DNA from: a virus
Lineage: Duplodnaviria > Heunggongvirae > Uroviricota > Caudoviricetes
Reading direction: 5' to 3' (one strand)
Virus record (IMG/VR): IMGVR_UViG_2734482772_000010
DNA length: 34,584 nucleotides
Both the position numbers and the translations under genes were made by a program. The stretch's first letter is position 1, and every line of letters begins with the position of its first letter. Of this stretch, positions 5,339 to 34,584 are shown in pieces. Below the pieces are notes generated by a model. The model saw only the letters and a program-made list of their open reading frames with translations, had not been told where the DNA came from and ran no database searches.

Positions 5339-7803
5339 CAGCTGTACTCCTTACGTTGTTTCTGAGCCAGCAGACGCTCCAGCATTTTTTCCAGCTCATG
5401 CAGGCTCATATTCAGGGCACCAGTCAGCCCGGCAGGCGCTGCGGTTTCCTTACCATTGAGAAAAAACTGAGGATTAAAGCTGACCTGGATACCGCCAGAC
5501 GCTCCACCGCCGGTTGCAGTTGCGCCACGGCCTGAATATCCGGCAGCCATGATTTCCGGCGACGGGATACGGGGAACATCCGGTGTCATTTCAGCGGCCA
5601 GGCGCTGCCCGGCCAGTGCAGCAAGCGGAGTGGTCCGTTGCAGGCCAATGGCGGCACCCTGCGCGATATTGTCACCAAAGCCCATAAACACGCGACTCGG
5701 TGAATGGATGCCCAGCTTTTCGCTGAACCAGTCACTGATGCTGTCACCCATTCCGGTTACGCTGGTTTTGAGTGACTCCCATTTGTTTCTGATGCCATTT
5801 ATCAGCCCGTCAATAAGATGTCCACCGAAGTCGGTGAATTTCGCCGGCAGATCAACGCCGAGATATTTCAGCGCAGCCGCAAAGGCTTTATAAAGCAGAC
5901 CAGCCGGAGACCAGTTAACCAGCAGTTTACCAATTCCCGCGATGCCGCCGTTAAAGGCTTCCTGAATGTCAGCCCAGCGCTGTTTAAACCAGCTACTGAC
6001 AGCGCCCCAGTTGCGGTAGATAAGGTAAGCTGCTGCCGCGACGGCGGTGATAACGAGACCGACGGGATTCATCAGCAGCGCCCGGCCAATCCAGAGAACG
6101 GCACGCCCGGCGCTCATAATTCCGCGAACCAGCCCCCCTGAGAGCACACCCCCCAGTGTTCTGGCTCCTCTGGCGACGGCACCAAAGCCTGTCACCAGCC
6201 AGCGGAGTTTACCGCCTTCCCCCAGTGCGAGCATCAGACGAAGCCAGTTGGCCCGAAGTAAAACAGCATTTTTCCAGACGCTTACAAAGGGGGAAATAAG
6301 GAGATTCAGCCCAAGCTTGAGACCGATAGTGGCCATCCTGAAAGCGAGTAATGCGCCCACAACCTTTATGGTGCTGCTGACGAGCTGCGGATTTGCCGCT
6401 ATCCATTTGCCGACGCTGTCCATTAAAGGAATAAATGTTTCACCCAACTGGAGCAAAGCCGGACGCAAGGATTGCCCGATGCTGATAGCAGAATCATTAA
6501 AGCCGATCTGCATTCTGCGCCAGCGACCTTCAAGCGTATCATTCTGCTTTGCAGCATCCTTATCCAGGGTAGACATTGCAGCCGGAGCATTCATTTCCTG
6601 CTTACTGGAAAGGTATTTATCCCAGCCCTGTCGCATTGACAGTAAATGGTTGACAGTCTGAATATCGGTAAAGACCTCAGCCAGACCAAATGACTCCATG
6701 AGTTTCTGCTGACCTTCCTGATCGCCTCTTGCTCCTGCAGCTTTCCATTGCTGCAAAAACGCTTTGCCTTTACTGTCGATAAAACGGTTGGCAATCATCA
6801 GTGAAGCTTCGTACTGCGAAAAACCCTGAGCGACGTAATTCTGCATTGACCCCTGGTAATCCACCCCGGCTTTAGCATATTTCTGGATGGTATCTCCGCG
6901 GCCCATTGCTGCCAGCCAGTTGGACATATTGGTGACCGCTTCCTCTGCAGAGCCACTACCTTTACCGACCTCCAGACTGGCAACAATCTGGGTAATCGCA
7001 TCTTTTCCATAAATACCACGAGCAGCGAAGGCTTTAGCCATACCGGGTAATGCTTTTGCCATATCCTTCAGCTCAAATGACCCAAGTTTGGCTCCTGTTG
7101 CCGCAATACCAAATGCCTGTTCAAGTTCTTTCGCATCAGTGATTCTGAGTGCATCGCTGAAGGCATAAGTCATTTTGGCAAGGTCGGTCATATCGGCTTT
7201 GGTTGCTGTAGCGGTCTTTCCAAGCATCTCTGCAAACGTTGCTGCCCGTTCGGGGGCCATACCATCAGCAACTAATTGTCCGACTCCCCCTAACAGAGAC
7301 TCCTGCAGTTGGTTAACCTTCAGCGAGGCCTGTCTGATAGCCAGGCCAATTGCACGTTCCTGTTTTGCATCCAGGTCTCCTGTGACACTGATATCCCGTA
7401 ACTGTGATTCAAACGAGGCATATTGTTTAACCGAGGCCATGACCGGTGCGCCCAGCGTTCTGCCAATAGCATAGGTTTCTGCACCCTGACCATAGAGCGC
7501 CAGGCGGTTAGCCTTCAACGCATCACCGGTGGCTGATACTGCTGACAGACGGCGCTGCTGACGTTCAATTTGCTCCATGGTGCGGCTTACCCGCAGCAAC
7601 TCGCTGTTGAGATGCTGCATCCGGGAAGAACCCAGTTGACCATAACGTTCTGTTGCCCGGGTTAAGGCATTCTGGCGTTCCTGCAGACGGCGGGAGGTAT
7701 CACCAAGGGAATCAAGGGCGCGTCGGGTGCCACTGACGGCTGAGCGGAAGCTGCTCCCGACAATGCCGCCAATAATGACGCCGACTGAAAATTCACTGGC
7801 CAC
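5338..7803 (-). CDS. tail tape measure protein
   Basis: 821-aa ORF, largest tail gene, between chaperone pair and gpU-like gene; Ala/Gly-rich with internal hydrophobic segments. Confidence 0.8.
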   Translation of the reverse strand: MASEFSVGVIIGGIVGSSFRSAVSGTRRALDSLGDTSRRLQERQNALTRATERYGQLGSSRMQHLNSELLRVSRTMEQIERQQRRLSAVSATGDALKANRLALYGQGAETYAIGRTLGAPVMASVKQYASFESQLRDISVTGDLDAKQERAIGLAIRQASLKVNQLQESLLGGVGQLVADGMAPERAATFAEMLGKTATATKADMTDLAKMTYAFSDALRITDAKELEQAFGIAATGAKLGSFELKDMAKALPGMAKAFAARGIYGKDAITQIVASLEVGKGSGSAEEAVTNMSNWLAAMGRGDTIQKYAKAGVDYQGSMQNYVAQGFSQYEASLMIANRFIDSKGKAFLQQWKAAGARGDQEGQQKLMESFGLAEVFTDIQTVNHLLSMRQGWDKYLSSKQEMNAPAAMSTLDKDAAKQNDTLEGRWRRMQIGFNDSAISIGQSLRPALLQLGETFIPLMDSVGKWIAANPQLVSSTIKVVGALLAFRMATIGLKLGLNLLISPFVSVWKNAVLLRANWLRLMLALGEGGKLRWLVTGFGAVARGARTLGGVLSGGLVRGIMSAGRAVLWIGRALLMNPVGLVITAVAAAAYLIYRNWGAVSSWFKQRWADIQEAFNGGIAGIGKLLVNWSPAGLLYKAFAAALKYLGVDLPAKFTDFGGHLIDGLINGIRNKWESLKTSVTGMGDSISDWFSEKLGIHSPSRVFMGFGDNIAQGAAIGLQRTTPLAALAGQRLAAEMTPDVPRIPSPEIMAAGYSGRGATATGGGASGGIQVSFNPQFFLNGKETAAPAGLTGALNMSLHELEKMLERLLAQKQRKEYS

Positions 7804-32804: not shown

Positions 32805-33254
32805 ATGCAGAAAAAACGACTGATTCAGCTTATCCATATTGCCCGTAATGAACTGGGTCTGGATGAAGACACCTACCGCCAGATGTTACAGGGGCTGACC
32901 GGTAAAGCCTCAACCAAAGGAATGGATACCACACAACTAAACTGCGTGCTGGAATCCATGAAAAAGAAAGGCTTTCGGGTTAAACCTGCCAGAAAAGCCA
33001 GCTCCGGTTTACCGCTGGATGACCATCCGCAGTCCAGGAAAATTCGTGCGCTATGGCTTGAAATGGCTGCTGCCGGCATTGTTCGTGACCGTTCAGAAAA
33101 TGCATTAGCGCGGTGGATCAAGCGGGAAACGGGCATCAGCGCCCTGCACTGGCTCAGTACTGAACAGGCAAGCAGTGTTATTGAGAAACTGAAGAAGTGG
33201 CAGCACAGAGCTGCGGGAGTCAAACATGAGCGACCTGAATCAGTTTCGAAGTAA
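32805..33254 (+). CDS. gemA: GemA-like regulatory protein (Mu gp16 family)
   Basis: 149-aa ORF; N-terminus MQKKRLIQLIHIARNELGLDEDTYRQML resembles GemA family; immediately upstream of and overlapping the Mor-like gene, as in Mu. Confidence 0.6.
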   Translation: MQKKRLIQLIHIARNELGLDEDTYRQMLQGLTGKASTKGMDTTQLNCVLESMKKKGFRVKPARKASSGLPLDDHPQSRKIRALWLEMAAAGIVRDRSENALARWIKRETGISALHWLSTEQASSVIEKLKKWQHRAAGVKHERPESVSK

Positions 33255-33612
33255 GGGGCCGGAACTCCTGGTGGAACTGGCACAGCATACCTCTGAGACC
33301 GTTCGCGAGATTATTGATATTGAGCCCGAAGTTGCCGACCAGATTGGTCAGGCCGTCGCGAACCGCATGATGCAGGTCTGGGGCGGGCAAAACGTTTATT
33401 TTCCTATGGGGATGAGATGGAAGATAAGCCAGCGTGACCGTGAAATCTATGAGGCGTTTAACGGACGTAACCACCACGAACTGTCCCGCAGATTCAGGGT
33501 TTCAGTTCCCTGGATTTACAACCTGGTAAAGCGCGTAAGAAAGGAAGAAATCAGCCGGTTGCAGGGGCAGTTATTCGAAGACGATGATGAACCGAATGAC
33601 AGCCGGGATTAA
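33226..33612 (+). CDS. mor: Mor-like transcriptional activator (Mor/C family)
   Basis: 128-aa ORF; GGQNVYFPMG...RDREIYEAFNGRNHHELSRRFRVSVPWIYNLVKRVR parallels the Mu Mor C-terminal DNA-binding region as recalled. Confidence 0.7.
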   Translation: MSDLNQFRSKGPELLVELAQHTSETVREIIDIEPEVADQIGQAVANRMMQVWGGQNVYFPMGMRWKISQRDREIYEAFNGRNHHELSRRFRVSVPWIYNLVKRVRKEEISRLQGQLFEDDDEPNDSRD

Positions 33613-33629
33613 TCAAAAGCGAGGTGATA

Positions 33630-33866
33630 ATGCGCTATAAAACCCCCAACAGCGCCTCCCTGAAGAAGGCAGACCATGCAGATATGGCGATGGAAATTAT
33701 CCGGCATTTTTTTGACGGTCTGACTTCAACTGAGGCGAGATATGTTCTCCGGGAGTGCGACCGACTGATTGACAACTCACGTCTGCATATCGGGCCTGAT
33801 GAAAAGTGTGTTTTGTATTACGGGAAAGTTTTACGTAACCCACCACCACCGCCACGAAAGTGTTAA
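33630..33866 (+). CDS. hypothetical protein, 78 aa, last gene of early operon
   Basis: ORF-track ORF 33624..33866 (GTG) with ATG at 33630; Pro-rich C-terminus PPPPPRKC. Confidence 0.4.
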   Translation: MRYKTPNSASLKKADHADMAMEIIRHFFDGLTSTEARYVLRECDRLIDNSRLHIGPDEKCVLYYGKVLRNPPPPPRKC

Positions 33867-33893
33867 CGAGCGTCAATAAATTCCCGGTTTATG

Positions 33894-33930
33894 AAAAGCG
33901 CAATGGATAACCTGTTGCGCTTTTTTTATT
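33894..33930 (+). terminator. intrinsic terminator at end of early operon
   Basis: Hairpin AAAAGCGCAA-(11-nt loop)-TTGCGCTTTT followed by a T7 tract, ~30 nt after the stop of the last early gene. Confidence 0.6.
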
Positions 33931-33960
33931 CTGGCAGAAAAACATATCACCGGAGGAAAT

Positions 33961-34584
33961 ATGTTTGATGCATCCCTGCTGAATCTGCCGTGGGCAACAC
34001 TGGTGACACTGACCAGTGGATACATCGGCTATTTTATTGCGAACGTGGGCCTGAAAGACCATCACAAGCCCATCGAGGTGACATTTACGACGCTGATTTT
34101 TGGCCTGCTGTCAATGATGGTTTACCAGGCTGTTATGTGGGCAGGTCTGAATTCGTGGCTTGCAACGCCACCAGCGCTTCTTTGCGCTTTTATTTACGGT
34201 GCGTTGTGGCGCAGATACGGTCGCAAATGGATGTATGAATTTCTGCATAAGCAAAACATCTCATGGTCTGATGATACTCATTCAGCGTGGCAGTCATTGT
34301 TCAATCAGATGGATTTCACTTTTTCTGAAATCTATGTATATCTTAAGGATGGCTCTGTTTTACTTTCACGAGCCCCCGGGCGATTTGCAGGACGGCCTAA
34401 CGGTCCTGTCACGTTAGGTAATAAGGGAGATATAATCTTATACGTCACGCACCGGACTACAGTCGGGAGCAATATCTGGACAGAATGCGATAGTGGTGTG
34501 GCAGATGACGGATGGGGAACTCTGGCAACCTATATACCTGCAGAACAGATTGCCAGAGTTGATCTACGACGAGTTTGTCGGTAA
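33961..34584 (+). CDS. membrane protein, hypothetical, 207 aa (AT-rich; phage-end moron or flanking gene)
   Basis: GGAGGA RBS; N-terminal half has three to four hydrophobic segments, C-terminal half soluble; stop codon is the last 3 nt of the window; AT-rich relative to early operon. Confidence 0.5.
   Translation: MFDASLLNLPWATLVTLTSGYIGYFIANVGLKDHHKPIEVTFTTLIFGLLSMMVYQAVMWAGLNSWLATPPALLCAFIYGALWRRYGRKWMYEFLHKQNISWSDDTHSAWQSLFNQMDFTFSEIYVYLKDGSVLLSRAPGRFAGRPNGPVTLGNKGDIILYVTHRTTVGSNIWTECDSGVADDGWGTLATYIPAEQIARVDLRRVCR

Follow-up and report, generated by a model that had tools for sequence, protein, structure and literature searches.

A convergent proline-rich micro-protein gene accompanies a prophage-borne membrane protein gene in a candidate anti-phage cassette

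The last gene of a viral record from IMG/VR (IMGVR_UViG_2734482772_000010; 34,584 nucleotides, analysed over its whole length and called the window here) encodes a 207-residue membrane protein, and we find that this gene (the target; 33961–34584, plus strand, ATG start) forms one half of a convergent two-gene cassette whose other half, the gene of a small proline-rich peptide, lies past the end of the window. The window is an Escherichia coli BcepMu-like transposable (Mu-like) prophage, as identified by Pfam matches and by the PGAP names in near-identical E. coli records. The cassette is an undescribed architecture within a known kind, the accessory module of prophages or defence islands that has a membrane effector. 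Judging from sequence and gene surroundings, we believe that the target is most likely the membrane component of a mobile accessory cassette, carried here as a moron, that would serve as an anti-phage module of the abortive-infection or exclusion type; we hold this reading tentatively, with a little less than even confidence, and consider a defence role for the cassette plausible. An earlier sequence-only reading of the window had correctly placed the target stop codon (TAA) on the last three bases of the window; it had overlooked the convergent partner, the Sm-like fold of the C-terminal domain and the fact that the window ends at an annotation cut.

The convergent partner gene

The pair was compared over 43 non-redundant loci from Enterobacterales and Alphaproteobacteria, at which target identity ranged from 29 to 100%. 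Directly past the target stop lies a minus-strand open reading frame (ORF) of 35–70 amino acids (aa), with a stop-to-stop offset mostly between –19 and +8 nt, and the two genes often overlap. A convergent ORF of at least 30 aa was present at 40 of the 43 loci and had a proline-rich C-terminus at 38, compared to 12 of 372 control genes from the same loci (Fisher p ~1e-37). At the locus of E. coli CFS3292 (L001) the partner gene occupies 6401–6580 on the minus strand, with a conserved start at 6553; further minus-strand examples lie at 6403–6603 of L002, 5065–5226 of L065 and 8659–8805 of L062, and the peptides at these loci are ~46–66 aa long. For the record studied here the partner gene falls wholly outside the window, having been removed by the window/UViG boundary.

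The partner peptides are hydrophilic, have no transmembrane (TM) segment and share an N-terminal M-T-x-K-(N/K) motif. A central motif follows, D(Y/F)SE.PKG in enterobacteria and (K/R)SYTP.T ... GNYTPTT in alphaproteobacteria, and the peptides end in proline-rich basic tails such as PPPPKK, PPPSPKKK, PPAPLGKK and APAPGKK. The gene is under purifying selection (pN/pS 0.11–0.71 in 18 pairs), and several copies are annotated by PGAP and by metagenome gene callers. The E. coli-type peptide belongs to PHROG 15726 ('unknown function', 9.9e-42) and has no Pfam match. A predicted sigma-70-like promoter, TTGAAA-18-TAGAAT, precedes the partner gene in 8 of 10 enterobacterial lineages (10/12 matches in six, 9/12 variants in two). 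It lies 37–43 nt 5' of the conserved ATG, is followed by a Shine-Dalgarno (SD) sequence AAGGA, and faces inward from the phage end, antisense to the target.

Peptide similarity followed that of the C-terminal domain of the target (partial rho 0.44) and not that of its N-terminal domain (–0.07). Adjacency and co-inheritance of the pair are thus observed, and the co-inheritance of peptide and C-terminal domain may reflect linkage, co-evolution or both; a toxin-antitoxin role of the pair is a candidate function. We also considered a conserved third, upstream component of the cassette and rejected it: the small upstream ORFs of different lineages and taxa are mutually non-homologous, and because they are not conserved between lineages we take the unit to be the gene pair.

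Two loci showed peptide variants. At L070 (7625–7800, minus strand) the peptide is split by a frameshift, with MSEKKVIIP in one frame and QPPRQPIGN...PPPPKK in another, which may mean a pseudogene, a sequencing error or recoding. At L079, the partner peptide encoded 3' of 7612 on the minus strand (MAQGSTPRPVYIPDSVQPKAPPPPPP...) contains RPVYIP, which is also the core of apidaecin, a proline-rich antimicrobial peptide of insects that targets the ribosome. The likeness is probably due to chance, and it would fit a translation-linked role of the peptide.

Expression signals and the prophage end

A strong intrinsic terminator separates the target from the early operon, in agreement with what had been read from the sequence. 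It spans 33893–33932 on the plus strand and consists of a 14-bp stem (33893–33925) with a 5-nt loop, followed by a T7 tract; folding at –21.8 kcal/mol (z = –4.47) was not equalled by any of 200 shuffles. The terminator insulates the cassette from the early operon and, given the A-run on its 5' side, is possibly bidirectional. Equivalent terminators with different hairpin sequences precede the gene in E. coli, Citrobacter, Serratia and Salmonella lineages, and none was found 5' of the gene at L041, L045, L047, L048 and L062. The target was described as independently initiated. This is borne out for translation, as an SD sequence GGAGGA stands at 33952–33957 (plus strand); for transcription, the promoter scan returned no sigma-70 match of 9/12 or better upstream. 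Below that threshold, a weak sigma-70-like element read from the letters overlaps the terminator (33904–33932, plus strand; TGGATA at 33904–33909, a 17-nt spacer and TATTCT at 33927–33932; 8/12). The geometry of TGGATA or TAGACC, 17 nt and TATTCT recurs in three different hairpin types (those of the window, of L037 and of L022/L005), and from the sequence it may represent a weak, low-level target promoter nested in the terminator. In all three hairpins the –35-like hexamer falls in the loop or descending stem, and TATTCT is formed by the end of the T-tract.

The target is a real gene of a coherent family. The ratio of nonsynonymous to synonymous substitution rates (dN/dS) against seven relatives was 0.04–0.30 in both halves, and a profile search of 1.84 billion representatives returned 523 clusters of relatives at 50% identity; of the 150 clusters listed, nearly all were full-length (~200–215 aa). 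All source names read 'hypothetical protein'. The description of the gene as AT-rich holds only relative to the phage (47.6% GC vs 54.7% for the window, within the lowest 8% of 624-bp windows); the value is near the E. coli average.

We place the target inside the prophage, since phage DNA with a conserved terminal sequence follows it. E. coli CFS3292 carries a 96.8% identical copy in which the target gene is followed by ~365 bp and then by malZ; the same prophage adjoins dpiA in A20 and interrupts kefF in MS1737. About 340–365 bp of phage DNA thus lie 3' of the target in CFS3292 and A20, and the regions 3' of the target converge on a common terminal sequence, ...TCATTTATCTCA.GTCT.ATCA. Mu-type elements are expected to end in ...CA. 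The alternative that the target might be the first gene outside the prophage is contradicted by the presence of the same prophage at the malZ, dpiA and kefF sites. Another IMG/VR record, UViG_2778261204_000006, includes the window, and its contig begins exactly at the target stop codon, which indicates that a prophage caller cut the window off at a gene boundary. Both window ends (1 and 34584) are such cuts of the IMG/VR prophage call and not biological boundaries; the true transposon end, with terminal repeats, lies ~365 bp past 34584 in the near-identical CFS3292 copy.

Within the prophage the target is optional cargo. Among 5426 complete E. coli genomes, the gemA-mor segment was found in 640, the N-terminal half of the target in 132 and its C-terminal half in 122, and ~80% of the genomes with this gemA-mor region have no target gene. 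The target is absent from FDAARGOS_1265 and 21KM1392, where no gene follows mor and the phage end comes ~165 bp after it; of this end, only the last ~40 bp are shared with the cassette-bearing phages. Morons are recognised by presence or absence among close phages, by a promoter and terminator of their own and by deviant base composition (PMC3594210). The target is present in some and absent from other closely related phages, and its base composition differs, modestly, from that of the surrounding phage genes. As to a transcription unit of its own, it has the upstream terminator and the 8/12 promoter-like element, and its 3' side is the convergent gene with a 10/12 promoter. The suggestion of a moron at the phage end is thereby borne out, and the target, optional and inside the prophage, is not a conserved host chromosomal gene.

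The same data bear on a possible role in the lytic cycle, in which the target would be expressed by read-through from the early operon and act as a holin/antiholin-like or host take-over factor adjusting membrane state or lysis timing. The gene does point the same way as the early operon and stands directly 3' of it, no convincing promoter serves it alone, and in BFVD Foldseek matched its TM domain weakly to LydA-type holins (E 0.016–0.5). We consider this role very improbable: the strong terminator intervenes, the gemA-mor-bearing genomes mostly have no target, homologues occur outside phages, and the phage has its own lysis cassette in the other arm (20643–21751), with an SLT transglycosylase (20643–21371) and a Holin_2-3 protein (21371–21751; 1.3e-40). 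The target itself has neither a holin-family match, its likeness to holins being confined to BFVD matches at E of at least 0.016, nor a place beside an endolysin in a lysis cassette.

The membrane protein and its relatives

The N-terminal multi-pass membrane domain and soluble C-terminal domain noted from the sequence were confirmed by a topology check, in which an AlphaFold2 (AF2) model, hydropathy and charge bias agreed. The model was computed as a monomer from a 65-sequence alignment (pLDDT 89.7, pTM 0.75). Residues 11–85 (33991–34215, plus strand) form a membrane domain of three TM helices, modelled at 11–28, 37–60 and 65–97, the last of which protrudes from the membrane; hydropathy and conservation support the same domain. 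The linker after TM3 is less confident in the model, yet conserved. K+R counts over 65 homologues were 0.5 at the N-terminus, 1.9 in loop 1, 0.1 in loop 2 and 5.0 after TM3, a charge bias that implies an N-out/C-in topology, in which the N-terminus and loop 2 face outward whereas loop 1 and the C-terminal domain face inward. Residues 107–205 (34279–34575, plus strand), predicted to be cytoplasmic, are modelled as a helix and a small bent beta-barrel. In the model this N-terminal helix leads into a five-stranded barrel, strongly bent, which can be superposed on Sm proteins, as expected for an Sm/LSm/Hfq-like fold. The barrel shares 7–21% identity with Sm/LSm/Hfq proteins and has no Sm-family Pfam match, and unlike them it is attached to a three-TM anchor. 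The same fold class includes the WYL sensor domains of defence regulators.

Conservation was computed over 254 homologues of 26–96% identity. The most conserved N-terminal positions are the periplasmic L9-P10 and, in TM1, G20-Y21-x-x-Y24-x-x-A27-x-x-G30, within a conserved motif LPW...GYxGYxxAxxG; His35 in cytoplasmic loop 1 is near-invariant, and W83-R84 are conserved at the end of TM3. In the barrel, conservation peaks at G131, G153, G156, Y161, T163, G186, P193 and R203. A Ser/His/Asp triad (S101/H35/D104) was rejected, as S101 and D104 were less than 85% conserved in this set. Among carriers, the N-terminal membrane half is well conserved, and the C-terminal half, the variable one, occurs as old, shuffled allele types: the halves of the window and A20 proteins are 93% vs 50% identical, and those of Citrobacter and Salmonella 92% vs 56%. 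Positive selection on the C-terminal domain was considered and rejected; its dN/dS of 0.1–0.3, together with saturated dS, points to old alleles shuffled by recombination.

The view of the target as an unrecognised protein held up, in that profile searches gave only PHROG 12870 and, distantly, DUF6338, with the Sm-like fold coming from the structure check. The match to PHROG 12870 ('unknown function') is full-length (E = 5.5e-97; residues 1–205 against profile positions 1–204 of 210), and the descriptions of PHROG 12870 and PHROG 15726 record neither a function nor the pairing of the two families. The window protein matched no Pfam or NCBIfam model, DUF6338 (PF19865) included at E <= 1. Of 26 aligned relatives, 12 matched DUF6338 (best E 1.4e-6), scoring ~25–29.5 bits against a gathering score of 26.5 bits, so that only some pass. 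The matches span TM2, TM3, the linker and the first strands (residues ~40–135 against profile positions 53–144 of 205). DUF6338 proteins are likewise uncharacterised membrane proteins of ~205 aa with a collinear layout, and on sequence grounds the target family appears to be a sister group at the edge of DUF6338, related at superfamily level.

Other searches added little. PADLOC-DB v2.0.0 (5027 models, E <= 1) contained no match for the target or for an 80-aa ORF upstream of it, an Rce1/CPBP protease match reached only E = 0.11 and was discarded as below the cutoff, and an Rfam scan covering the terminator, the gene and the region 3' of it returned nothing credible. No solved structure was related by sequence in a search of the PDB. 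In BFVD, Foldseek found one full-length match, an uncharacterised phage protein. A DNA search of a collection of isolated phages gave no match, and the only protein homologue there is from Synechococcus phage Ssp-JY41 (32% identity; L003, 5983–6726). That homologue is the terminal gene of a 20-kb cyanophage record, which stops at the gene. No study of the target family came up in literature searches on DUF6338, the PHROG identifiers, the WP accessions and membrane defence proteins with an Sm-like domain; mentions of DUF6338 were confined to an unrelated context.

The architecture also bears on a function in lysogenic conversion or host physiology, with the target acting as an ion or solute channel, a stress sensor or part of an addiction (toxin-antitoxin) module that stabilises the element. 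An N-out/C-in three-TM domain followed by an Sm-like barrel resembles, we presume, the TM region and beta-domain of MscS; a small convergent partner with a strong promoter, as here, is toxin-antitoxin-like, and the cassette travels on many kinds of mobile element. The target has no MS_channel domain and no structural match of TM3 plus beta-domain to an MscS-type channel, and neither MscS nor PilZ nor holins were among the structural matches of the AF2 model. Overall, we think such a function quite unlikely.

Genomic contexts and possible role

At all Enterobacterales loci the pair closes the early arm, behind gemA-mor, even where transposase identity falls to 49%. Elsewhere its position varies. 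Another BcepMu-like phage (L081) has it flanked by the holin/SLT genes on one side and the repressor on the other. It is also found between a gp6-like connector and a head-completion gene of an HK97-type module in Pseudochrobactrum, between minor-tail and tail-tip genes in an Ensifer prophage, 3' of tail genes and adjoining HigB or repressor/integrase genes in two other elements, and beside a transposase and three tyrosine recombinases in Bradyrhizobium. Three contexts are linked to defence, the first of them in part. In an integrative and conjugative element (ICE, L082) with a type IV secretion system, the pair adjoins a methyltransferase-Mrr fusion. In Rhizobium leguminosarum (L070) the neighbours are ShosA (1.4e-70), ShosT (6.7e-11), an AriA-like ATPase (4.9e-41) and an Avs2/Aga-like STAND protein. 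On a 304-kb metagenomic contig (L077) the pair sits between a type I restriction-modification system with PrrC (2.3e-144) and TerY/PP2C/STK_OB genes (1e-130 to 1e-182), with HipAB nearby. A mobile defence or accessory cassette would be expected at such varied sites, and a core phage function would not. The guess, made from the sequence, that the gene might act in exclusion or abortive infection gains indirect support, because homologues sit in defence islands.

The main rival to an anti-phage cassette of this kind is classical superinfection exclusion, in which the lysogen's inner-membrane protein would block phage DNA entry in the manner of P22 SieA, HK97 gp15 or T4 Imm, with the peptide as an accessory or regulator. 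The design of the target is like that of P22 SieA, a small moron-encoded inner-membrane protein with three predicted TM helices and a conserved cytoplasmic C-terminal motif (PMC10883804). Its placement at prophage moron positions, several of them within tail or head-tail modules, as described for the HK97 gp15 moron, fits as well, and a variable cytoplasmic domain could track variable injection proteins. Against this, the cassette also occurs in non-phage defence islands and an ICE, which would be unusual for phage-specific exclusion functions; the variable and presumably specificity-bearing domain is cytoplasmic, and the periplasmic loops are tiny. Nor is there a sequence relation to SieA, homology to which was rejected (hhalign probability 0.2%, E = 0.29). 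SieA further differs from the target in having no Sm-like domain and, in the annotated P22 record, no convergent peptide partner. We regard superinfection exclusion as unlikely, though of the alternatives it deserves the most weight.

Returning to the anti-phage cassette, we can outline how it might work. The membrane protein would be the effector, oligomerising through its Sm-like domain, as in Sm-fold rings, and through the GxxG-type TM1 motif, and upon infection would disturb the inner membrane or keep DNA from entering. With a terminator in front of it and a promoter that is weak at best, it would be made in small amounts. The predicted well-expressed, disordered peptide would restrain or tune the membrane protein like an antitoxin, together with the antisense-running transcript, which has to extend into the 3' end of the target. 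Phage infection would break the balance between peptide and target, thereby activating the effector. The proline-rich, PxxPxK-like tail may dock on the SH3-like barrel, and terminal polyproline would make synthesis of the peptide EF-P-dependent, a possible reporter of translation status. A poorly expressed membrane protein opposed by a well-promoted convergent micro-protein amounts to a toxin-antitoxin-like arrangement.

A bolder form of this proposal is that the target and the proline-rich peptide constitute a previously undescribed, widespread two-gene anti-phage system of proteobacteria, in which a membrane-anchored Sm-like effector or sensor would be held by a disordered peptide, an antisense transcript or both as an antitoxin-like brake, the polyproline tail perhaps being read by the SH3-like barrel or coupled to EF-P-dependent translation of PPP(P)KK. 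The family numbers ~520 clusters at 50% identity, with prophages, ICEs and defence islands as its carriers, and we put this forward as a real possibility that is nevertheless doubtful. Lambda RexAB, CptA/CptB and SNIPE (PMC13190303) are similar to the cassette in having a membrane protein, a two-gene design and a home on prophages or defence islands. As in membrane-effector abortive-infection and toxin-antitoxin modules, a small, predicted well-expressed partner is set against a predicted poorly expressed membrane protein. The target has no homology to RexAB/CptAB/SNIPE-type systems in PADLOC, Cpta_toxin matching only 2 of 26 members (E 0.037), and we know of no convergent 3'-overlapping genes with a proline-rich disordered partner among systems of that type.

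Several observations weigh against an anti-phage cassette. The target showed no homology to a characterised defence, superinfection-exclusion, abortive-infection or toxin-antitoxin protein in PADLOC v2 and in the hhalign comparison with P22 SieA. Of roughly a dozen distinct contexts, two loci and one ICE provide the link to defence islands. The peptide gene is frameshifted at L070 and missing at L045, and the peptide may not be strictly required; its co-inheritance with the C-terminal domain could be simple linkage. The promoter evidence for the target consists only of the 8/12 element, and if the target were expressed only by early-operon read-through it would act in the lytic cycle and not in the lysogen. 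Oligomerisation, pore formation and binding of the peptide to the barrel are conjecture.

The rest of the prophage is organised in two arms. Structural genes occupy the minus strand up to ~21.7 kb. Between the lysis genes and the repressor lies a central low-GC block (22176–24337, GC down to 39.7%), with a 113-aa ORF just before it (21811–22149, plus strand). The block contains a DUF2441 gene (22176–22754, minus), a Dam-type methylase (22983–23744, plus) and a 181-aa ORF with no Pfam match (23795–24337, minus), and a CI-like repressor is encoded in this central region. The block is probably a second moron site. In the BcepMu-like phage of L081 the cassette occupies the equivalent position. From ~25.1 kb the plus strand carries the early operon, comprising a DDE transposase, an ExeA-type B protein, Gam, DUF2786, GemA/gp16 (32805–33254) and Mor (33226–33612).

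Downstream of mor, the ORF list gives a small plus-strand ORF, 33630–33866 from ATG (78 aa) or from GTG at 33624 (80 aa), which PGAP calls in CFS3292 and A20. It had no match in Pfam, PHROG, PADLOC or NCBIfam, and tblastn found it only with some alleles (L001, L002, L021, L035, L036 and L042, not L022-type loci). It is part of the optional right arm and not a conserved partner of the target. Its polyproline-plus-basic tail (NPPPPPRKC) resembles that of the convergent peptide, and unrelated ORFs at the same upstream position likewise end proline-rich and basic (...RPPRPLSKG at L062, ...PPGK at L009 and L071). These tails may be a coincidence or a second ligand of the barrel.

New bacterial immune systems come mainly from prophage morons and defence islands. 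The cassette is spread across the Alphaproteobacteria and, in E. coli, through ~2.4% of complete genomes; neither the PADLOC v2 models searched nor the literature reached by full-text search include it. Gene-boundary trimming by prophage callers, which removed the partner gene and the true transposon end, makes the cassette appear as a lone orphan gene in viral databases. Its design, a predicted membrane-tethered Sm-fold domain with a convergent polyproline-tailed micro-protein, is unusual. If it is a true defence system, it would represent a new effector or sensor architecture with compact (~0.9 kb) regulation by a convergent small gene, one that would be easily tested in E. coli.

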